Counted from the first letter of the stretch, positions 17,934-29,000 are shown. The stretch: DNA of 64,000 nucleotides from Bdellovibrionales bacterium (GCA_041736155.1 JBGSUL010000032.1:166479-230478); one strand, 5' to 3'. Notes: a model not told the origin generated them from the letters alone. Translations and numbers: made by a program.

Positions 17934-18288
17934 AGGATCCTCCCGTCAATTGTCCAAGAATCGTATCAGTATTGGCAGCCTGGATCCGAAGATTTAGCTC
18001 ACTTTATAGACACGAAATCCATTTAATTTTCTATAGCACAGCGCGAACATAGAGCTGCCGCCATGTGTTGTCAAGCGGTCCAATATTCGAGCATATTTTA
18101 TTCTTTTTACTGGGGAATCAACCAATGGGACCAGGTCGTTTTTTACACTAAAAAAACTGCATAAACTCTTATGAGAGATATAAATACCTGTAATTACAAG
18201 AACAAATAGGACCAGACGGAAGTTTAGAAGTTGCCGATTTCCTTCATTTTCCCTACGCAATCACCGATAGATCGCCATGGGAGACGGC

Positions 18289-20115
18289 ATGCGTCTAAAT
18301 GTGATTTTACAATTATCTGCTCTTTTTTTAGGAATATCCGGCTGTGCTACATGGAATCTTTCCTCACCGGCGGTATTCAAAAGTGACGCTTACAACGTAA
18401 AGGGAGAGGCGCCCGAAAGTATAGCACCGCCTGAAAATCCCGAAGAAATGGCCGAAGTTCAGAGCCAAAGCAAAGCTGACTACCATTTCACTCTTGCTGA
18501 GTCTTATAGCATGCAAGGTGAGTGGACGAAGGCCATTGAAAACTACAAATTAAGTCTCGTTCACGATCCCAAATCGTTCCGCAGCCATTTTCGTGTCGCC
18601 AGTGAGTATGTGCGCGCTGGCTTAGTGGGCCAAGCACTTGAGCATTGCGAAGAGGCGATCAAAATCAAAAAAGATTTTGCCGAAGCACGCATTCTCCAGG
18701 CGAGTCTTAATTCGGTACTAGGTTTCCATGACAAAGCACGTAAAGGCTATGAAGAGTTACTCGTTCTTGAGCCTAAAAACCAAGAAGCGCAAATTCTTTT
18801 GGGAGCCACGTATCTTGATGAGAATAAGCTGGACCAAGCGGCTCGGTATTTTGAGGTTTTAGCACGCAAAAATTCTCAGTCGCACATTGTTTGGTACTAC
18901 CTTGGCAGAACGTATTTAATGCAAAAAACTCCTCAGGCGATGGCGAATGCCGAAACGGCATTTAAAACATCGCTTAAAATGGAGCAAAACTTTGTTCAAA
19001 GTGTGATTGAGTTAGGTTCGATTTACGAAAAGCGCGGCCAATTTGATAAAGCCGTGGCACTTTACGAATCTTATCAAGCGCAGTACGGACCTGATGTTTC
19101 TGTCGCTGAAAGTCTTGTGCAGGTTTATTTAACACAAGAAAATTACGCGCGCGCTTATGAGCACCTTAAAACCATCAATGAGTTGGATCAGGGCAATCTG
19201 AACGCACAACTTAAGATGGCCTTTATTCTCGTGGATCAAAAGAAATTCAGTGAGGCGATTCCTCTCTTAGAAAAAATTCTCCATCAAACACCTGAGTCCG
19301 ATCGTGTGCGTTTTTATTTAGGTGCCGTTTACGAAGAGATCAAAGATTTCCCTGCAGCTATTCAGCAATTTAAAGAAATTCCTAAGTCGAGCAAATATTT
19401 TCCTGATTCGATTATGCACATGGCGTATCTCTATAAGTTACTTGAAAAGCCTGATGCCGCGATTGCGTTGCTAGAGGAGCAAATGGAATTTTTGGATGAC
19501 AATGCCAAAATTTACGCCCTCTACGGATCTTTTTTAGAAGGTCAGAAGCGCTATGATGAAGCACAAAAATTACTCGAAAAAGGAATGGGAAAATTTCCTA
19601 CAGATACACAAATTATCTATCAATTAGGATCTGTGTACGACCTTCTTGGGCAACCGGATAAAACCGTGGCGAATATGGAGAAGTTGATTGAGATCGACAA
19701 AAATCATGTCGAAGGATTGAATTACCTTGCTTACCTTTATGCAGACAAAACAAAAAACCTAAGTGTCGCCGAAAAACTGGCGCGTCGAGCCTTGTCATTA
19801 CGTCCAAATGACGGTTTTATTTTAGATACGTTAGGTTGGGTTTTATTTAAACAGAACCGCTTTGATGAAGCCGTAAAAACGTTAGAACGAGCTCATCAGA
19901 TTGAAGGCAAAGAAAGTATTATTGCTGAGCATTTAGGTGACGTTTATTTTAGAGTAGAAATGCCACAAAAAGCTCGCGACATGTACAGAAAAGCTGCGGA
20001 AAACGAAAAGAACGAGAACAATGTACAAAAAATTCGCGCAAAAATTGACACCATTGAGCAGCGTATTCAAACAGAAATACGTATCAAAAAACCACGAGCG
20101 CCAGCCTCTCGATAA
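18289..20115 (+). CDS. Large TPR-repeat lipoprotein
   Basis: Lipobox ALFLGISGC, then many TPR units (for example YHFTLAESYSMQGEWTKAIENYKLSLVHDP). ATG 18289 has GGAGA upstream. ATG 18277 is an alternative start. Confidence 0.8.
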   Translation: MRLNVILQLSALFLGISGCATWNLSSPAVFKSDAYNVKGEAPESIAPPENPEEMAEVQSQSKADYHFTLAESYSMQGEWTKAIENYKLSLVHDPKSFRSHFRVASEYVRAGLVGQALEHCEEAIKIKKDFAEARILQASLNSVLGFHDKARKGYEELLVLEPKNQEAQILLGATYLDENKLDQAARYFEVLARKNSQSHIVWYYLGRTYLMQKTPQAMANAETAFKTSLKMEQNFVQSVIELGSIYEKRGQFDKAVALYESYQAQYGPDVSVAESLVQVYLTQENYARAYEHLKTINELDQGNLNAQLKMAFILVDQKKFSEAIPLLEKILHQTPESDRVRFYLGAVYEEIKDFPAAIQQFKEIPKSSKYFPDSIMHMAYLYKLLEKPDAAIALLEEQMEFLDDNAKIYALYGSFLEGQKRYDEAQKLLEKGMGKFPTDTQIIYQLGSVYDLLGQPDKTVANMEKLIEIDKNHVEGLNYLAYLYADKTKNLSVAEKLARRALSLRPNDGFILDTLGWVLFKQNRFDEAVKTLERAHQIEGKESIIAEHLGDVYFRVEMPQKARDMYRKAAENEKNENNVQKIRAKIDTIEQRIQTEIRIKKPRAPASR

Positions 20116-20713
20116 AACACTTGGCATCTTCCTTCTCTTATTTTTGAGCGGCTGTGCTTCACAGCCTCCAGTGACCGATGCCAGCGGCAAGTTCTATTCA
20201 GGCAAAGCCGAAATCTTTGACAAGAAAAAACAGAAAAACGAAACAGTGAAATTTTATGTGGCAGTGGATTCCGCGTCGACTACGCCAACCTTTCGAATGG
20301 ATGTCACAGCAGGAATGTTAAATATTCCTATGGGAACTTTGATTTTACACGGCTCAGAAGCGCAATTCGTCAATTTGATGGAGCGAAAAAACTATCGTTC
20401 TAAAGATGGCGCGCGCGCTTTAGAGAAAATTCTCAAAGCGCCATTGAAACCAGAACATGTAATTGCTTTGTTCAGCGAACAATTTCCTCTCGCGGCACCG
20501 TGGCAGTGTCAGAAGGCGCTAGCCAGCTCGACCAAATGCGAGACGGTGGATCTTTTCCTCGAGTGGGGCAAAGATAATGAGGGCAAAAGACAGCTGACTG
20601 TCGACAGTGAAAAATCAAAAATTCAGTTGGATTACAAGGCCAATGATCCACGACGCGTGAGTTATGACTGGCTTAAGCCCTCAGGCTTTGAAGAGATCTG
20701 GATGTCCATGTAA
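20021..20713 (+). CDS. Lipoprotein, possibly LolB/DUF4292-like
   Basis: Lipobox LLLFLSGCAS. The only in-frame starts (20021, 20045, 20054) overlap the TPR gene end, so the start is uncertain. The LolB-like assignment is weak. Confidence 0.55.
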   Translation: MYKKFAQKLTPLSSVFKQKYVSKNHERQPLDKTLGIFLLLFLSGCASQPPVTDASGKFYSGKAEIFDKKKQKNETVKFYVAVDSASTTPTFRMDVTAGMLNIPMGTLILHGSEAQFVNLMERKNYRSKDGARALEKILKAPLKPEHVIALFSEQFPLAAPWQCQKALASSTKCETVDLFLEWGKDNEGKRQLTVDSEKSKIQLDYKANDPRRVSYDWLKPSGFEEIWMSM

Positions 20714-20818
20714 CTTTTCTCTCGATCTGCGAGTTCGTGTAAGGTAAATAATAAAAGTTTATAATAATCTTGTGCTAGCTTAAATTATTTGCTTCAATTT
20801 AAAAAATTGGAGGATTCG

Positions 20819-21406
20819 ATGAGATTATTGGGTTTGGTTGTGCTTGTATTTTTTGTGGTTCCTTTCAGCGCCAATGCGGGCTTTCATCTTGAGCCCTATA
20901 TAGGAAAGTCATTGAGTGGCGATTGGACGCAGGGAACAGAGGGCGACGCTAAGATGACAGACTTTGGTGTGAAGCTGGGTTATCAAGCGTACTCGGGATT
21001 TCAAATAGGTGGAGAGTTGCAAATGGGCGTTGGAGAGTTTGAAAATTTCTCTACGGCTGATGCGGCTCAAGCGGCTTTTGGCTTTTATCTCGGCTATCAA
21101 TCGAGCATGGGTTTGCGTGCGTACGCTCATTATCTTTTTTCCTCTGCTGCTGTTTTCGACGATCTCAACCAAACTCAGATAGCCGGCAAGGGATTTAAAT
21201 TGGGTGTGGGATATTCTTTACTTTCTTGGTTGGCCGTGAATTTGGAATACCATACGATGACCTACGACCAATTTAAAACCAACCTAACCGGTTTTACTGA
21301 GTTGACTCCAGAATTTGAAAATAATTTTGTAATGGTTGTTCTCAGTTTCCCTTTTAATTTTGGTGGCGGCAGTTCCCACGAAAGTTCTTCAAGTTCCTTC
21401 AGATAA
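20819..21406 (+). CDS. Small outer-membrane beta-barrel protein
   Basis: ATG 20819 follows GGAGGA. Signal peptide MRLLGLVVLVFFVVPFSANA, alternating amphipathic strands (GVKLGYQAYSGFQIGGELQMG, FKLGVGYSL) and an aromatic-rich end VVLSFPFNF. Confidence 0.7.
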   Translation: MRLLGLVVLVFFVVPFSANAGFHLEPYIGKSLSGDWTQGTEGDAKMTDFGVKLGYQAYSGFQIGGELQMGVGEFENFSTADAAQAAFGFYLGYQSSMGLRAYAHYLFSSAAVFDDLNQTQIAGKGFKLGVGYSLLSWLAVNLEYHTMTYDQFKTNLTGFTELTPEFENNFVMVVLSFPFNFGGGSSHESSSSSFR

Positions 21407-21407
21407 A

Positions 21408-23315
21408 CTAAGGGAAGTCTTTGTAGGCGTAATCAAAATAGAGTGGACCTTGGCTGCAAGTTACAAAAGAAAAGTAATTTATACTGGGGTTCATGAGCTG
21501 CTTGGATATGTGAAAAGAGTTAAGAATAGAAACCACTTGGTATTGGCTATCGTTTTTGTAGGTGATGTCTGAGTGTTCAAATATTCTGTTTTTAGGTCCT
21601 ACCGGCTCTGGAAAGACATCGCCGAGCGTGACTTCTTCTGCGAGACGCGGAAAGTTCTTACTCAATCCTGTAAATGATATGCTGCCACCACAGAAAACGC
21701 TGTTTTCAATTTTAAAATCCAATTCCCAGAGAATACGAAATCGAGGATCATCCAAATATTTTTTATTAAGTTCGCCCGAGGTGTCGATTTTCTCTACGGC
21801 ATGCCAAGTCTTATCGTTTTCGTCAAAGTAGGCCCACGAAAACAAATTTTCTGTAAACATGACGTTCACATTTTTATTTTGACTGAGACCCCAATAGTGA
21901 AATGTGAGAGGGTTGGGGGTGGGTAATAATAAATTCTTTTTTTCGGCAGTGACCACATAAACTTGCTCTACATCAGCGGAAGCTGTGATTTGAATTTCGC
22001 TGGGCTTTACAGCAAAAAAATATTCACAGGTGTTTTCTTTCTGTGCAATAAATTTCCCAGAAAAATAATTGCGCATATACAAATCGGTTGATCGGTATTC
22101 GTTGGCAGCATTCATTTTAAGAACGAGAGCTACGTCTTGAGGTTTTTGAGGACATTGAAGAGTCATTTTGAGTCCACGAAGCGAGTTCATCACAAAATCA
22201 TGCGCTGATAAAACTTCGTACCCCAAATTGTCGGGTGAAACCACTTCGTCGGTAGGCAGATGAACATCAAATAAAGTCGCTACAATTTTGCCATTGGTGT
22301 ACTGCCAAGTGCCTTGGCTGTTTTTAACTACGGGTATACGAAGTTCGTATTGTGTGTAAATGGGTACATAACTTTGCATATCTTTTTGGATCATAAAATA
22401 AATAGCGGTTCCTTTAAGAATCTGTGCAGTGCCGAGATCCTTAAATGTACGCACGTCTTCAAAGCTTGGAGTTCCGACCCATACAAATCCCGTATAGATG
22501 AAATCAAAATCAATCCAATTTATATTTGCGGTGACTAGGACTCGCGAAAGATTTAAGTAAGTAGAGTCGCTGTAGATAATGACTTGCCCGACGTTATTGA
22601 GACCTATCTCGGCGAGGGTAAATTGTGAGTATTCGTTTATGTTAACGTAGTTGTCAGTCCATAGACGGAAATTACTCGAGGAATTTGAGGCTTCTCCACC
22701 TCGAGATAAAGTTATTTGCGAAATCTTTAAACTCAATCGATCCAAAAAAGCTTCCGATTCATAGCCGAGGCCAGTTTGGTGGCCCAGCTCGTGAATGAGG
22801 TAGGTCAGGATTTCTGCGCCAGAAAGGCTTGTGGTTGCCGTTTCAAAAAATTCCTGATTAAAAATAATTGGTCCAGGCTTAAGACTGCTTACGGCGATAC
22901 GGTGAGTTTTGTATTGAGGGAGATCAAACAACTTTTTGTCGGGTAAGAAGCCCAAGGTTTTGAATTGCTCTTGAGTTGTGGAATCCAGTTGTGAAAATAG
23001 ATCCTGCATATCACGAGCAAAGTAAAGAGAGGCCGAATTACTAGTCACAATTTGTAAGATTTTACTTAGGGTTGCAGACTCCTCTTGAGACAACCCGCAG
23101 CCTAATTTTAAACACGGAACGATATAACGATTTAAATTTGCGAGCAGCTGCTTTGCCAGGATGTGCTGCCCCCGTTGACCGGGCTCCGCCTCCGACGTCA
23201 GCTGACTTTGGGGAATGTAAATCGCGGAAAGATTTGAGGGGCGAATATCAGCCCCAAAGGCCAAGACCTTCGAGCTAATGAAGAAAAAGAAGATTACAAA
23301 AGAAATTTTTGCCAT
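21408..23315 (-). CDS. Secreted 635-aa protein with zincin-type HExxH motif (unclassified putative metallopeptidase)
   Basis: Signal peptide MAKISFVIFFFFISSKVLAFG and a single LIHELGHQTG at 22779-22793. Large C-terminal region of unknown fold. Last gene of the AT-rich operon. Confidence 0.75.
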   Translation of the reverse strand: MAKISFVIFFFFISSKVLAFGADIRPSNLSAIYIPQSQLTSEAEPGQRGQHILAKQLLANLNRYIVPCLKLGCGLSQEESATLSKILQIVTSNSASLYFARDMQDLFSQLDSTTQEQFKTLGFLPDKKLFDLPQYKTHRIAVSSLKPGPIIFNQEFFETATTSLSGAEILTYLIHELGHQTGLGYESEAFLDRLSLKISQITLSRGGEASNSSSNFRLWTDNYVNINEYSQFTLAEIGLNNVGQVIIYSDSTYLNLSRVLVTANINWIDFDFIYTGFVWVGTPSFEDVRTFKDLGTAQILKGTAIYFMIQKDMQSYVPIYTQYELRIPVVKNSQGTWQYTNGKIVATLFDVHLPTDEVVSPDNLGYEVLSAHDFVMNSLRGLKMTLQCPQKPQDVALVLKMNAANEYRSTDLYMRNYFSGKFIAQKENTCEYFFAVKPSEIQITASADVEQVYVVTAEKKNLLLPTPNPLTFHYWGLSQNKNVNVMFTENLFSWAYFDENDKTWHAVEKIDTSGELNKKYLDDPRFRILWELDFKIENSVFCGGSISFTGLSKNFPRLAEEVTLGDVFPEPVGPKNRIFEHSDITYKNDSQYQVVSILNSFHISKQLMNPSINYFSFVTCSQGPLYFDYAYKDFP

Positions 23316-24193
23316 GCGACCCGCTTAATTTTTAAATGATAGTGTTCTGTCGCAGCGAAGAATTGTATCCAGTTCAAGTTGTTTTCAAAGAAAATAATAG
23401 GTAGCAAGCGGATCCCTTTTTCTATTCCGTTACAACTATAGCGAATCTGCACTTCTGCTTTAACGTAGCCGGCATTGAGAAGGTTGAGGAAAAAATTTTC
23501 GATGCGAAACCACTCCACCGTTTGGCAGGTTTCATCCATAGGCACTCGATAACTATCAGTCAGATCAGTAATAATGAGGGACGGCTCATTTTTATGGGTG
23601 AGGAAAAAAATATGGGGTTGAGACCAATGACTGAGATCAGAGAGAATGGTCACGTTTTCTAAAAATGCATAGAAGTCGGAGGCTTCTTTTATTTTCTGTG
23701 AGTTGCTGACGCTGTGATGATGGTAAGAATAAAGACTCAAAACATATTTGTAGCCATCCAAATTTGTTTTTGTATCGAGCAAACGAGAATTAATGATATT
23801 TTCGCTGCCGGGCGAATTCCCACTTATAAAAACTTTTTCGTGGAGATTGGTAGAGAGAAGTCGTGGATCGTCTTTGGAAGTCTTAAACTCAATGGGCTGT
23901 TCTTGTTTGTGATGGATATCAATCAGGCTGAGGAAACTTGTCGTGTCGTTGGAGCAGAAGTTTGTTTTTTGGCAAAGTTGGATTTGTTGGGAGATTAAGC
24001 TCTCCGCAGAAATCACAAAATTTTTGTCAGGTCCTCCGCCATTGCCGGCACCATCGCCCCCAGGGGCGGGGATCAGTTCCCAATCCATAGGTATAAGAAC
24101 AAAATCGTGAGGTGTTGTTCCGCTCAGGTTCAGGGACCAAGTGAGGTTGGGCCAAAACAAACTTACAAGGAGAATGCACAAAATACGAAACAT
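23294..24193 (-). CDS. Secreted 299-aa protein, apparent paralog of the N-terminal part of the 635-aa protein with degenerate HExxH site
   Basis: Signal-like MFRILCILLVSLFWPNLTWS. CQKTNFC corresponds to CLKLGC, and SLYSYHHHSVS sits where LIHELGHQTG lies in the neighbour. TAATG overlap upstream and a 22-nt overlap downstream. Confidence 0.7.
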   Translation of the reverse strand: MFRILCILLVSLFWPNLTWSLNLSGTTPHDFVLIPMDWELIPAPGGDGAGNGGGPDKNFVISAESLISQQIQLCQKTNFCSNDTTSFLSLIDIHHKQEQPIEFKTSKDDPRLLSTNLHEKVFISGNSPGSENIINSRLLDTKTNLDGYKYVLSLYSYHHHSVSNSQKIKEASDFYAFLENVTILSDLSHWSQPHIFFLTHKNEPSLIITDLTDSYRVPMDETCQTVEWFRIENFFLNLLNAGYVKAEVQIRYSCNGIEKGIRLLPIIFFENNLNWIQFFAATEHYHLKIKRVAWQKFLL

Positions 24194-25060
24194 TATTGAT
24201 CCTCGATCTCTACCGTGTGTTCAAAAAGTTGAAGGTTCAATTGATAAACGCAATCGCCTTTTTTTGCATAGAATTTATCATCTACAGAATTACGGAAGTT
24301 ACGTAAATGCTGCTTGAGAGCTGGCAAATCGGATTTCTTGAAAGAAAAAACCCAGGAAATCAGCTCTCTCTCCAATACACCTTGCTCATCGATAGATTCC
24401 AAAGCTCTCTGTAGCATTTGTTTATGATGTGTTCTGAGCGTTGCGCTGGGAATGTCTTCGCGGCTTAAAAAACTCGTTTCTTCCTTGATAAGCTGATTTG
24501 TTTCGGGGTCGCGATGAAGTCCACCATAAGAGAGAAAAGCGTTGATAGTTTTTTTGATATCCTCGGTAGAAACTTTCTCGCGCAATCGCTTTCGTATCCA
24601 GACGAGATCTTCTTTAAAATTGCGTGTGCCAACCAGTTGACGAATGACAAAGACATACCATGGGAAGAGCTGGTCAAAATCGGCGAGGCTGAGGCGTTTG
24701 GTTTTTTTAACGGCATTTGCGCGCAGTTCGATAATTTTTTGGTGAATCTGTGCAGAGGATAGCGATTTTTTTTTCTTTTTGTCTTAAAACAAGTAATTGC
24801 AGAAAACGTTTTTCGTTTTCAAGAAGACCGTAATCTTCGGCCAGGAGCTCAATCATTTTTGTTGAGGGTAAACGTTTCCCCTCAACCAGCATGCCAAGGC
24901 TACGCGTGGACCTGTAGCCCAAGCGCTGCGACCAGGTTTGCAATGATATTTTTTTCCCCCGCCGTCGATAATCGTCTCTCATGAAAGAGATAAATTCCTG
25001 TGGCGAATCTGCCTTCAGTAACATGCGGGGGACGGTACAATAGAAGATATACACGGTCAA
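24193..25060 (-). pseudogene. TIGR02147/DUF4423-type putative HTH regulator, split by a frameshift in an A9 tract
   Basis: The N-terminal ORF (25060->24707) reads FISFMRDDYRRRGKKISLQTWSQRLGYRSTRSLGMLVEGKRLPS. The C-terminal frame is open from 24783 and reads ...FDQLFPWYVFVIRQLVGTRNFKEDLVWIRKRL... down to stop 24193. The two frames meet at T9 (+ strand 24766-24774). Eight A would give an intact 288-aa protein. Confidence 0.75.
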
Positions 25061-25450
25061 TTACAGACAGCTGTACTTCATTTGCCATTCTTTTTTCTGC
25101 AAGGTTTCTGACGATGTATTTACCGCGCCGTCATGACCCGTTACGATGGCTGTGCCGAGAAAACTTCCGACTTTTCGTTTATTGGCATTTTCCATCTCAG
25201 AATTACTATTGGTGATTGTACCGACGACAACTTCAGTTTCTTCAACAATATCTACGGTTTTTGAACCACAATTACTTTGCATCAGTGAGGTGGCCAAATT
25301 GCGATCTTCTTCGCGGTGTTCTGCATGCAGAGCAATAACGCCTCCGCGACCCGGTTGCTTTTGAGCAGATCGTGCATAGGGCTGGTACTCAAACATGCTG
25401 GCACAGCCGACGATGAGTAAAAAGAGGGGTAGTATCAAAATCATTTTCAT
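25061..25450 (-). CDS. Small lipoprotein, first gene of the AT-rich operon
   Basis: Internal ATG 25450 follows AAGGAGAAC. Lipobox signal MKMILILPLFLLIVGCAS, 129 aa. Its stop abuts the start of the next gene. Confidence 0.65.
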   Translation of the reverse strand: MKMILILPLFLLIVGCASMFEYQPYARSAQKQPGRGGVIALHAEHREEDRNLATSLMQSNCGSKTVDIVEETEVVVGTITNSNSEMENANKRKVGSFLGTAIVTGHDGAVNTSSETLQKKEWQMKYSCL

Positions 25451-25812
25451 TTGTTCTCCTTGGTGAGGGGTTTGACGATTAATATGCGATGCAACGCCTG
25501 GACAGGCAAAAAAATCGAAGGTCGCGTATAAAAAAGGAGGCACAAACTGTGCTTCTGTGAACACATAAAAGCAAAAGTGAGGTCAACTTACTGGAAACAC
25601 AGGACCTCTTGAGAACAACAAAACTGAGCGGTCGTTGCATAACAGAATCTTCTAGTTGGCATAACAAAATACGATCAAAATAATGTCTCGCCCATTCACC
25701 GGAAAACCTAGACGACTGTCTAAAGATAGAGCGAATTCCGAGACACATACGGACTAAAATTGAGTCTCAAATTCAGATGGTGCATAATAGTAGATGCGAG
25801 CCAGGAGGGATC

Positions 25813-27885
25813 ATGACCATCACTTTGACAGATATTCTAAAGGGTTGGAAGGGTAACGAGGACTTTAAAGACCTCACATGGACAGGGGGCTTTGACGACT
25901 ATCTAAAGGTCGTGAAGCAACATCCAAAAATCACCCGCAATGCATACCAAAGAATGTACGACATGATTCTGGAGCACAAGTCTTCTGAATACGTGGATAC
26001 AAAAAAGAAAGTCACTCGTTACCATTTTTTTGATGATATCGAAAATGATGGCAAAGACGGTGTCTTTGGTCTCGACATTCCACTGATGAAATTAGTGAAC
26101 GTTTTAAAAGCCGCCTCTCTGGGTTACGGCACGGAAAAACGTGTGATCCTTCTGCACGGCCCCGTGGGAAGTGCTAAGTCGACCATCTGTCGTCGATTAA
26201 AAAAAGGCTTAGAACAATACTCACGCACAGAAAACGGCGCTCTCTACACTTTTGAGTGGGTCGATGAGGCCGGCGAACTTTCGGGTCTGCTCGGTGTGAA
26301 TGTGAAAAGTTTCCCAAGCCCAATGCACGAAGAACCACTTCTTTTAATCCCAACGGCTCTACGCCCTAAGGTGGAAGAAGAAATCAATCGTGGCATGCAA
26401 GGTGAGTATCGCATTAAAATCGAAGGAGAGCTTTCTCCGCCAAGTCGCTTTATTTTCCGTGGACTGATGGAAAGATACAATGGCGATCTCACTAAAGTAT
26501 TAAGCCATGTGCGTGTGAAGAGAATGGTGCTCAGCGAAGCTGATCGTATTGGGATTGGTACGTTCCAACCAAAAGACGAAAAGAATCAAGACAGCACAGA
26601 ACTTACCGGTGATTTGAACTATCGTAAAATTGCTGAGTATGGATCGGATTCTGATCCGCGCGCCTTTAACTTTGATGGAGAATTCAACGTTGCTAACCGT
26701 GGGATGATTGAATTTGTCGAAGTGTTAAAGCTCGATGTGGCCTTCCTTTATGATCTTCTTGGCGCTTCGCAAGAACACGTGGTGAAGCCTAAGAAATTTG
26801 CACAAACTCACATTGATGAAGTGATCATTGGTCATACCAACGAGCCTGAGTATCGTAAATTGCAAAACAACGAATTTATGGAAGCTCTTCGCGATCGTAC
26901 AGTGAAGATTGATGTTCCTTATATTACTAAATTGCGCGAAGAGATTAAGATCTATGAAAAGGATTTTAATAAAAAACGCATTCGTGGCGTGAGCATTGCG
27001 CCGCACACGATTGAAGTAGCTGCCATGTGGGCTATTTTGACCCGTCTAGAAAAGCCCAAAAAGGCTAATCTGACTCGTCTACAAAAAATGAAACTTTACG
27101 ATGGTAAAACTCTGCCGAATTATACAGAGGACAATATTAAAGAACTGCGTAAAGACACAATACGTGAGGGTTTAGAGGGGATTTCTCCTCGTTACATCCA
27201 AGACAAAATTTCCAATTCGCTCATTCAAGCTCAGCAGAACAACCGGGGTTCGGTGAATCCGTTTATGGTCCTGAACGAGCTCGAGTCGGGATTAAAGCAT
27301 CACTCGTTGTTGTCCAATGAAGAACTGAAAAAAGAATACCGCGAACTGATTGATGTGGTCCGTAAAGAGTACGAAGAGATTATTAAGTCGGAAGTACAAA
27401 GAGCGATCAGTGCCGACGAAGGCGCTTTGGGCCGCTTGTGCGGGAACTACATCGACAACGTGAAGGCTTACACTCAGCGCGAGCGCGTGAAAAATCCTTT
27501 CACGGGTCGTGATGAGGAGCCCAACGAGCGCTTGATGCGTGCGGTGGAAGAAAAAATTGATATCCCTGAGTCGCGTAAAGATGATTTCCGTCGGGAGATC
27601 ATGAATTACATCGGCGCCATCTCTCTCGAAGGGAAAAAATTTGATTACAAAATGAACGAGCGTCTTCATAAGGCTCTCGAACTTAAACTTTTCGAAGATC
27701 AAAAAGATAGCATCAAGCTGACTTCTTTGGTTACTTCTGAAGTAGACAAAGAAACCCAAGAGAAGATCGACATTGTTAAAGGTCGATTGATCAAAGATTT
27801 TGGATACGATGAGATTTCAGCCACGGATGTTCTCCAGTATGTTGCGAGCATTTTTGCTCGAGGAGATGTGAAAGAGAATAAGTAG
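25813..27885 (+). CDS. prkA: PrkA-family serine protein kinase (YeaG-like AAA+ ATPase/kinase)
   Basis: ATG 25813 follows GGAGGG. Walker [20 protein letters not shown]. The long, conserved-looking PrkA body includes [16 protein letters not shown]. Confidence 0.88.
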
Positions 27886-27905
27886 AGTCGAACACCAGGA
27901 GTAGT

Positions 27906-29000
27906 ATGTCCATTCGTAGGGACCAGAGCCGATTTCGCGATATAGTGCGTGGTAAAATTCGTGAGAATTTTAAAAAATACGTCACGCACGATGAACTGAT
28001 CGGCAAGAGAGAAAATGATTACGTAAAAATACCCGTGCCCTACATTGATATCCCACGCTTTAAATATGGCCCGAAACAACAGGGTGGCGTGGGACAAGGT
28101 GATGGCAAAGACGGTGATCCTGTCGGTGGTGAAAAACAGCCAGGACAGGGCGAAGCTGGCAGTGATCCCGGTGAACACAGCCTCGAAGTGGATATTTCTT
28201 TTGATGAGCTCGCCGATATTTTAGGCGAAGAATTGCAATTGCCGCGCATCGAACCTAAAGGCGGCAAAATCCAAAGTGAAAAAACCAATTACACAGGAAT
28301 GGCGCCCGCAGGGCCGGATTCTTTGCGACATTTTAAGACTTCGTACAAACGTGCCCTCAAAAGATATATTTCGAGCGGTGTGTATGATCCTAAAAATCCT
28401 GTTGTTGTACCTATTCGTGCGGACTTCCGGTATCGTTCTTTCAAAACGACAGCTCAGCCACAGGCTAACGCCGTGGTGATTTATATCATGGACGTCTCGG
28501 GTTCCATGGGCGAAGAGCAAAAAGAAATTGTGCGACTCGAGAGTTTTTGGATTAATACATGGTTGAAGAAACATTACAAAGGTTTAGAAACTCGTTTTAT
28601 CGTGCACGATGCAGCGGCCAAAGAAGTGGATGAAGAGACCTTTTTCCGCACCAGCGAATCAGGTGGCACCTTGATCAGTTCCGCGTTCAAGCTCTGTCGC
28701 GATATGATTGCTCAAGATTATCCCGCCGATCAATGGAATATTTATCCTTTTCATTTCAGTGATGGAGACAACTGGAGCAGTGACGATACCAAGCTGTGTC
28801 TCAAAATGCTGACCGAAGAGATATTACCCAAAGTGAATTTTTTTGGCTACGGGCAAGTGGAAAGCAAATACGGCAGCGGCCAGTTCTATAAAGATCTCGA
28901 AAAAGAGTTCACTGGTGTGGATAAAGTTGTATTGAGTCGGATTAAAAACAAAGAACATATCTTAGGGTCTATTAAAGACTTCCTGGGAAAGGCGCGATAG
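27906..29000 (+). CDS. yeaH: YeaH/YhbH-family protein (DUF444, vWA-like)
   Basis: 364 aa with a Gly/Asp-rich N-region and MIDAS-like [14 protein letters not shown]. It lies between prkA and spoVR as in other genomes. Confidence 0.8.

Follow-up and report, generated by a model that had tools for sequence, protein, structure and literature searches.

A packed gene block in a Bdellovibrionales bacterium encodes a putative secreted zincin of an unclassified family and its degenerate paralog

The stretch of DNA considered here, henceforth the window, comprises 64,000 nucleotides from a Bdellovibrionales bacterium (GCA_041736155.1, JBGSUL010000032.1:166479-230478), and within it a block of minus-strand genes at positions 21408-25450 raises a question: what kind of system is encoded by a small lipoprotein, a helix-turn-helix (HTH) protein and two further proteins, one with and one without a zinc-peptidase motif, when their genes are packed next to prkA? 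A preliminary description, made from the sequence alone, had proposed a translationally coupled operon that pairs a secreted enzyme with a degenerate copy of itself. We put at roughly 0.6 the probability that the block is an accessory module, acquired by horizontal insertion, whose core is an extracytoplasmic zinc metallopeptidase from a zincin family not classified before, accompanied by a non-catalytic partner.

The putative enzyme is P635, a 635-aa protein encoded by an open reading frame (ORF) at 21408-23315 (minus strand, from the ORF listing). Its N-terminus reads by eye as a signal peptide (MAKISFVIFFFFISSKVLA/FG), four of its six cysteines are invariant in close orthologs, and the signal peptide and the conserved cysteine pairs together point to an extracytoplasmic location. 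The N-terminal zincin-like domain, delimited by a structural model and by invariant residues, spans residues 48-206 (22698-23174, minus strand) and harbours the sole HExxH of the protein, the putative zinc-binding and catalytic motif HELGH at residues 175-179 (22779-22793, minus strand), which is followed by QTGLGYESEAFLDRLS. The region beyond it, residues 207-635 (~430 aa; 21411-22697, minus strand), is all-beta according to DSSP of the model and, judged from the secondary structure of the model, consists of about three beta-rich domains. The family is small: a word-indexed search of 5.8 billion proteins returned a single relative, and a HMMER scan of 1.84 billion representatives with a two-sequence profile returned 15 proteins at E<1e-3. 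Exact-peptide-pattern scans of genome and metagenome contigs with the P635 alignment yielded no match, probably owing to the exact-pattern requirement. Four of the 15 align over the full length, while the other 11, mostly of ~600 aa (range 288-787), share only the N-terminal ~160 residues. Eight residues are invariant in all 15 (F130, R139, I150, N153, H175, E176, H179 and G182); the single zincin signature singled out in the preliminary description is thus shared by the whole family.

AlphaFold2 predicted the full-length protein with a mean predicted local distance difference test (pLDDT) of 77 and a predicted template-modelling score (pTM) of 0.74, and the N-terminal domain alone with values of 89.7 and 0.87. 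HELGH is placed on a helix (166-179) with H179 as its last residue; a long helix (185-204) comes next and bears two candidates for the third zinc ligand, E188 and D192, at +9 and +13 from the second histidine. Position 188 is Glu, Asp or His in all 15 proteins, and position 192 is Asp in 14 of them and Glu in the remaining one. By analogy, E188 or D192 is the likeliest third ligand, in a gluzincin- or aspzincin-like geometry. Sequence conservation and model alike suggest that P635 is a zincin-type metallopeptidase, of a family that has not been classified.

Which of the known families comes closest? The predicted domain is reminiscent of small zincins, i.e. the aspzincins (M35, deuterolysin 1eb6), the minigluzincins (selecase, abylysin), Wss1/WLM and Zincin_1 (PF06262, 3e11), in which HExxH likewise sits on a helix that is followed by a second helix with acidic residues. 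They head the fold matches of the P635 domain and account for all its sequence-profile matches, but none of the similarities is significant (Foldseek E>=0.21 and template-modelling score (TM)<=0.48; hidden Markov model (HMM) E>=0.014). Nearly all of the top ~40 Foldseek matches are zincin peptidases (deuterolysin, selecase, abylysin, Wss1, neprilysin, lethal factor, PPEP, archaemetzincin), and the best PDB sequence-profile match of the domain, the Zincin_1 structure 3e11, is marginal (E 0.021). The only recurrent sub-threshold family matches are those to Zincin_1 and Peptidase_M10, no member reaching the Pfam threshold. Matches to Zincin_1 occur in 7 of the 15 proteins (best E 0.014) and not in P635 itself; an assignment to that family was rejected, given the lack of a match in P635 and family matches below the gathering threshold. 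In aspzincins an Asp ligand lies at +9 to +11 from the second histidine. Membership of M35 was likewise rejected, the motif GTxDxxYG being absent after HELGH and P635 having no Pfam match at E<=1; it differs further in invariants of its own (F130, R139, PIxFN, a Cys pair) and in its fusion to ~430 residues of beta structure. With the metzincins (snapalysin type M7 HExxHxxGxxD, or HExxHxxGxxH) P635 shares HExxHxxG including the invariant glycine (G182), and the 11 distant family members have Asp at the third-ligand position, whereas P635 and three close orthologs have Tyr or Phe. With Tyr rather than His or Asp at position 185 (+6), and with Peptidase_M10 matches that are sub-threshold, a metzincin was rejected too. 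No significant Pfam, NCBIfam or PADLOC match was obtained for P635, no Pfam match for its C-terminal region, and a Foldseek search of the full-length model against the PDB returned only meaningless beta-rich matches (TM ~0.1, root-mean-square deviation >20). That the preliminary description could place neither secreted protein in a named peptidase family agrees with searches of Pfam, NCBIfam and the PDB, all without significant match.

The partner is P299 (299 aa, 23294-24193, minus strand, from the ORF listing). Pairwise comparison shows nothing of its relationship to P635: BLASTP gives a non-significant E of 1.1, and a two-versus-two profile comparison gives 0.82, or 0.016 with close orthologs only. 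Homology becomes visible only with a diverse profile of the N-terminal domain. An hhalign comparison of the P299 family with the 15-member profile yielded E-values of 1e-6, 1.4e-7 and 2e-10 as orthologs were added (probability 91-97%), the best alignment (probability 96.9%, E 2e-10) placing P299 58-184/200 on P635 52-221, and all controls (reversed, unrelated and 30 column-shuffled) remained at E>=0.06. HMM cross-matches agree: P0015 matches the P299 HMM at 1.6e-20 and the P299-like proteins match the N-domain HMM at 1e-7 to 3e-4. P0013 and P0015 are short members that retain HELGH and also match the P299 profile. The alignment brings C74/C80 onto C68/C73, the strand 'GSxNIIN' onto 'GPIIFN' and YSYHH onto HELGH. 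The preliminary description had paired CQKTNFC with CLKLGC and had set YSYHHH at the site of HELGH; both correspondences are recovered, and its view of P299 as a shortened, degenerate version of the N-terminal part of P635 (there put at ~190 residues, here at ~200), non-significant by BLASTP, becomes significant with the family profile.

HExxH is absent from P299 and from all four P299-like proteins, and no Glu or first His of the P299 family aligns with E176 or H175. Without these two residues no peptidase activity by the zincin mechanism is expected. What the family retains is the pair of cysteines, Asn in the PIxFN strand and a basic residue at the position of R139. It has invariants of its own, namely a His-His pair at the lost HExxH position (H158 and H159, 23717-23722, minus strand; invariant in 4/4 P299-like proteins) and a GNGGG motif just before the first helix (residues 50-54, 24032-24046, minus strand), the GGG of which is also invariant in 4/4. 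Similar motifs occur in the short active P0013 (VGNGAG) and P0015, as well as in the P299-like proteins of loci L095 and L101. On sequence evidence P299 is a pseudo-zincin, a paralog of the catalytic domain of P635 that has degenerated, and it has no Pfam, NCBIfam or PADLOC match; a PDB profile search of its family gave marginal matches only. As a separate observation, GGD..GNGGG follows the signal peptide in the dead zincins, with a variant in P0013 and P0015, and was not found in the active forms of ~600 aa; a function as pro-segment or as sorting signal is conceivable.

Is the association of these genes peculiar to the window? The lipoprotein, the TIGR02147 gene, the dead zincin and the active zincin occur together in five loci that are independent of one another and highly diverged (the window, L001, L003, L095-97 and L101), among which gene orders and even orientations differ. 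The gene neighbourhood is thus conserved elsewhere as a set, in differing orders. The P299 orthologs of L001 and L003 lie directly upstream of P635 orthologs, and the stop of P299 and the start of P635 share a coding overlap of 22 nt (23294-23315, minus strand; ATGGCAAAAATTTCTTTTGTAA) that has the same length in the window, in L001 (828-849) and in L003 (2506-2527), suggestive of translational coupling of the two genes. Partial versions of the arrangement were seen as well: in L093 a degenerate gene of ~300 aa, encoding a more distant P299 ortholog, adjoins upstream the active gene of ~600 aa for P0016; the contig of P0007 has an unsequenced 292-aa neighbour in the corresponding position; and TIGR02147 genes accompany short active zincins in L010, where the two genes overlap by 4 nt, and in L091, where they lie near each other. 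Two of these loci call for a remark of their own. L003, the best full-length ortholog locus (GCA_016307145.1, contig JADMIO012752773.1), comes from an assembly with contig numbers of >12 million, which suggests a bacterial contig within a very large, probably eukaryotic, assembly. In L101 (26-2919) the zincin gene has two ORFs immediately upstream, one of 831 aa that is cut off by the contig end and encodes an RHS/YD-repeat protein, and one of 135 aa; this suggests a toxin-rich neighbourhood.

The small lipoprotein is listed as an ORF at 25061-25564 (minus strand), an internal ATG of which, at 25450, yields a product of 129 aa (25061-25450) with the N-terminus MKMILILPLFLLIVGC and the lipobox LIVGC, read by eye. 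Its homologs, whose loci were found by a contig pattern scan with the lipoprotein alignment, adjoin TIGR02147 genes in 8 non-redundant loci, including three (L098, L100 and L105) beyond those described above. The lipobox cysteine (Cys16), C61, C128 and a KEWQ..Y.C tail are invariant in the five homologs. No match was found in Pfam, NCBIfam or PADLOC, and a PDB profile search was only marginal; the protein appears to represent a tiny family not described before. A second, larger lipoprotein sits beside the TIGR02147 gene in L001 (4119-4916, 265 aa) and L095 (5932-6819, 295 aa); the two are weakly alike (BLASTP E 0.003), have no counterpart in the window and may constitute a fifth component.

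A small envelope lipoprotein and a dead paralog are both suited to blocking an active site, and this opens a different reading, in which P635 is an antibacterial or predatory effector that degrades envelope proteins of prey or competitors while P299 and/or the lipoprotein protect the producer. Such a role would suit a Bdellovibrionales host and an accessory, inserted block; the module of L101 adjoins an RHS/YD-repeat protein, and growth in prey raises the expression of a DUF4423 protein in B. bacteriovorus (PMC12546842). However, Pfam and NCBIfam scans disclosed no secretion-system, toxin-marker or known immunity domains, PADLOC returned no match, and the family is very rare even in Bdellovibrionota and absent from the closest relative. 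An effector with its immunity proteins would overlap with the peptidase module proposed here and differ only in the target; we allow it a small but appreciable chance.

The state of the putative regulatory gene bears on whether the module is functional in this genome. The preliminary description had read an intact TIGR02147-like HTH gene from 25060 to 24193, but this interval measures 868 nt, which is not a multiple of three, and resolves into two ORFs (25060->24707 and 24585->24193, the second frame being open from 24783). Reading of all three frames, by hand and then by script, located a +1 frameshift in a homopolymer of nine A residues (A9) at 24766-24774 (minus strand). As encoded, neither ORF spans the TIGR02147 model: the two halves match it at positions 10-82 with 27 bits, below the cut-off of 50, and at positions 148-269 with 52 bits, just above it; DUF4423 scores 77 bits. 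With one A removed, the frame yields a 276-aa product whose TIGR02147 match reaches 117 bits over positions 10-269 of 272 and which is 57% identical, gap-free, to the L003 ortholog. The assignment to the family thus holds for the repaired gene; as encoded, the gene (24193-25024, minus strand) is interrupted. Its true start is probably the ATG at 25024, the position used by the orthologs, and not the TTG at 25060, so that the gap after the lipoprotein stop, previously given as 0 nt, is likely to be 36 nt. The A9 run is identical in an independently assembled Logan contig (L002), which has one single-nucleotide difference elsewhere, and the lesion is therefore probably real in the DNA, with a systematic homopolymer error or rescue by slippage as alternatives. 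Programmed frameshifting conserved among orthologs was ruled out, as the orthologs are intact, have no A-run at the site and carry a linker of equal length there.

The orthologs of this protein seem to carry an HTH of the XRE/Cro type at the N-terminus. HTH_3 is matched in the L095 ortholog with 23.7 bits (threshold 23), the HTH_3 and HTH_31 matches of other orthologs fall just below, and residues 23-69 give PDB profile matches to Cro/HigA-type proteins (E 6e-4 to 0.1); the window protein itself has no Pfam HTH match. TIGR02147 (Fsuc_second)/DUF4423 is a large paralogous family, expanded in Bdellovibrio and Fibrobacter, for which we know of no function. In the literature searched, DUF4423/TIGR02147 is mentioned only as one uncharacterised B. 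bacteriovorus DUF4423 protein, listed as induced during growth in prey (PMC12546842).

Might the block then be the decaying remnant of a transferred island that no longer functions here? The regulator is frameshifted with the same A9 run in an independent assembly, the block is absent from the nearest relative and from six other related genomes, and no promoter was detected. Yet the ORFs of P635, P299 and the lipoprotein are intact and every family-invariant residue is kept, and the halves of the regulator align gap-free at 57% identity with its ortholog, which makes the lesion look like a single recent homopolymer event, possibly a sequencing error or one bypassed by slippage. Decay strikes us as improbable on this evidence, and under the module reading the frameshift would mean that regulation is lost here, that it depends on slippage, or that the extra base is a sequencing error.

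As for the arrangement of the genes, the tight same-strand packing with overlaps reported earlier is well supported: the ORFs of P635, P299 and the lipoprotein have the coordinates and strand claimed, and the 22-nt overlap, a TAATG junction at 24193 between the TIGR02147 gene and P299, and divergence from prkA (start 25777, plus strand) are all present. The proposed coupled four-gene operon stands as far as packing and overlaps go and falls short of an intact four-gene set, the HTH gene being frameshifted. From their spacing, the four genes may form one transcript. The intergenic region between the lipoprotein gene and prkA (25451-25776) is, by position, presumed to be the promoter region of the block; no sigma-70-like site was found on its minus strand, and neither it nor the block matched a riboswitch or other RNA family in Rfam.

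Where did the block come from? Comparison of PrkA identifies the host as a member of the Bdellovibrionales: the closest genome, L011, has a PrkA with 94% identity (the best species representative), and the proteins of Pseudobdellovibrionaceae and Bdellovibrio are 77-83% identical to that of the window. In L011 prkA comes immediately after a TPR lipoprotein gene and the p230 gene, and nothing corresponds to window positions 20714-25706; in a blastn comparison the match extends up to 20425 and resumes at 25707, with only ~100 nt between the two in L011. The p230 gene adjoins prkA in L011 and in six further relatives, including B. bacteriovorus (loci L028, L031, L017, L012 and L018 among them), and the block genes were found at 0 of 80 prkA loci. 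Since related Bdellovibrionales have p230 directly next to prkA, the sequence at 20714-25706 (~5 kb) is an insertion as judged from synteny. The block ends do not resemble those of a mobile element: neither flanking repeats nor a tRNA as target was found there.

Base composition has no part in this argument. The preliminary description had called the block AT-rich and compositionally foreign, but the four-gene block has a guanine-plus-cytosine (GC) content of 42.1%, and the window as a whole one of 45.3%. This deviation of ~3 points is ~1.7 standard deviations (1.9 points for stretches of the same size, 6% of which are as low), and the GC content at third codon positions of the block genes lies within one standard deviation of that of the other 49 long ORFs. 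Neither windowed GC nor third-position GC thus departs markedly from the rest of the window, and a foreign composition was ruled out. The three counts on 60-nt lines that had given rise to the claim are exact (0.35, 0.333 and 0.55) and at the same time unrepresentative, given that such lines vary with a standard deviation of 0.076.

The inserted segment contains one further ORF, of 205 aa (20789-21406, plus strand), which converges on P635 with a gap of 1 nt and resembles an outer-membrane protein (OMP) beta-barrel (PF13505 OMP_b-brl, 27.9 bits against a gathering threshold of 28.7, E 3e-6). A tblastn search with it matched only the Logan contig of the window itself, and it is not linked to the module elsewhere. 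Its presence brings up the possibility that P635 has a housekeeping function in the envelope, as a protease that serves the maturation or quality control of lipoproteins or OMPs of its own cell, with the lipoprotein or the 205-aa beta-barrel as substrate or anchor. That all products are extracytoplasmic, that the lipoprotein is always linked and that the OMP-like ORF lies inside the inserted block would fit; but the distribution is patchy and rare, close relatives do without the block and the OMP-like ORF is unlinked elsewhere, and we consider a housekeeping function very improbable.

How, then, would the proposed peptidase module work? P635 would be exported by its Sec signal peptide, as read from the sequence; its N-terminal domain of ~160 residues would be the enzyme, with the catalytic HELGH on a predicted helix and E188 or D192 of the next helix as third zinc ligand, and the beta-rich C-terminal part of ~430 residues would most likely position the enzyme or select its substrate. 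P299 would probably be made in fixed proportion to P635 as a non-catalytic partner, either an inhibitor or chaperone that silences the protease in the periplasm of the producer, or a substrate-binding subunit. The XRE-HTH/DUF4423 (TIGR02147) protein would be the transcription regulator of the module, and the small lipoprotein an accessory factor tied to the envelope, perhaps as anchor or inhibitor. Catalysis, physical contact between the two zincin proteins, regulation and expression from a single transcript are inferred, and a prey-directed role is only a possibility. A bolder version would see in the block a dedicated, self-regulated system that serves predatory bacteria as a weapon or for remodelling. 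In it P299 would be an obligate latch or inhibitor, the lipoprotein would retain P635 at the envelope or silence it there, and TIGR02147/DUF4423 proteins would be dedicated regulators of secreted-hydrolase cassettes; this we regard as doubtful.

Several points weigh against the module as proposed. Residue 185, at the metzincin third-ligand position, divides the family, with Asp in the 11 distant members, Tyr or Phe in the four close ones and Tyr in P635. The structural models were built on a 15-sequence alignment, and the N-terminal domain has no significant Foldseek match in the PDB, the best being deuterolysin 1eb6 (E 0.21, TM 0.48). P0006 and P0008 have none of the partner genes nearby. Gene linkage is what suggests that P299 interacts with P635, that the lipoprotein has a role and that the TIGR02147 protein binds DNA, and promoter-like and terminator-like sites within the block are not above chance, so that such signals lend no support to a single transcript. 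Finally, a broken regulator and a closest relative without the block could indicate that the module may be dispensable or decaying. The three alternatives discussed above differ from the module reading mainly in the target or in the functional state.

Among known systems, pairs of an active and an inactive metallopeptidase paralog occur in M16 heterodimers and in the alpha and beta subunits of the mitochondrial processing peptidase, where the heterodimer has been demonstrated. These pairs likewise consist of two paralogs, one with and one without the zinc motif (encoded here by adjacent genes), but they have an inverzincin HxxEH fold and are cytoplasmic or mitochondrial, while an interaction between P299 and P635 is putative. 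Secreted metalloprotease operons with a small periplasmic inhibitor are known from the serralysins (AprA/AprI, PrtA/Inh), in which, as is proposed here, a secreted zinc protease (putative in P635) stands beside a small extracytoplasmic protein able in principle to shield the producing cell; they differ in that there is no sequence or structural relation, in that the module has no type I secretion genes and in that its inhibitor is only putative. The repaired window gene is a full-length member of TIGR02147/DUF4423 (117 bits, cut-off 50), whereas the window copy is frameshifted and recurrently linked to a zincin pair and a lipoprotein, a context that we have not found described.

Zincin proteases, pseudoenzyme partners and protease-inhibitor operons are thus of kinds already known; new would be the P635 family, its conserved dead twin and the link of both to TIGR02147 and to a new lipoprotein family. 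If the module reading is true, P635 defines a new family of zincin peptidases with a built-in pseudoenzyme partner, outside Pfam and NCBIfam and with no significant match to a solved structure, and the block offers a first hint, from genomic context, of what TIGR02147/DUF4423 does. Antibacterial enzymes are being sought among the secreted proteases of predatory bacteria, and a rare mobile cassette with a putative silencer would be a concrete candidate. Should the protease be inactive or self-directed, this would be one more lineage-specific cluster of hypothetical proteins.

Some features of the surroundings complete the picture. At 25540-25552 (minus strand), upstream of the lipoprotein start in the intergenic region towards prkA, there is a hairpin resembling a terminator (GCACAGTTTGTGC, with a T-run behind it), which is to be seen against a background in which terminator-like sites are not above chance in the stretch. 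On the far side of the block, the TPR lipoprotein ORF (18277-20115) and the p230 ORF (20021-20713) overlap by 95 nt as listed; p230 has an LSGC lipobox of its own ~40 residues in, and its true start is probably further downstream. The two genes (18277-20713) are syntenic with L011. Next to prkA, on the same strand, follows a 364-aa ORF (27906-29000), and the DNA at 25777-29000 is 78% identical to that of the closest relative, which marks it as the conserved backbone that received the block.

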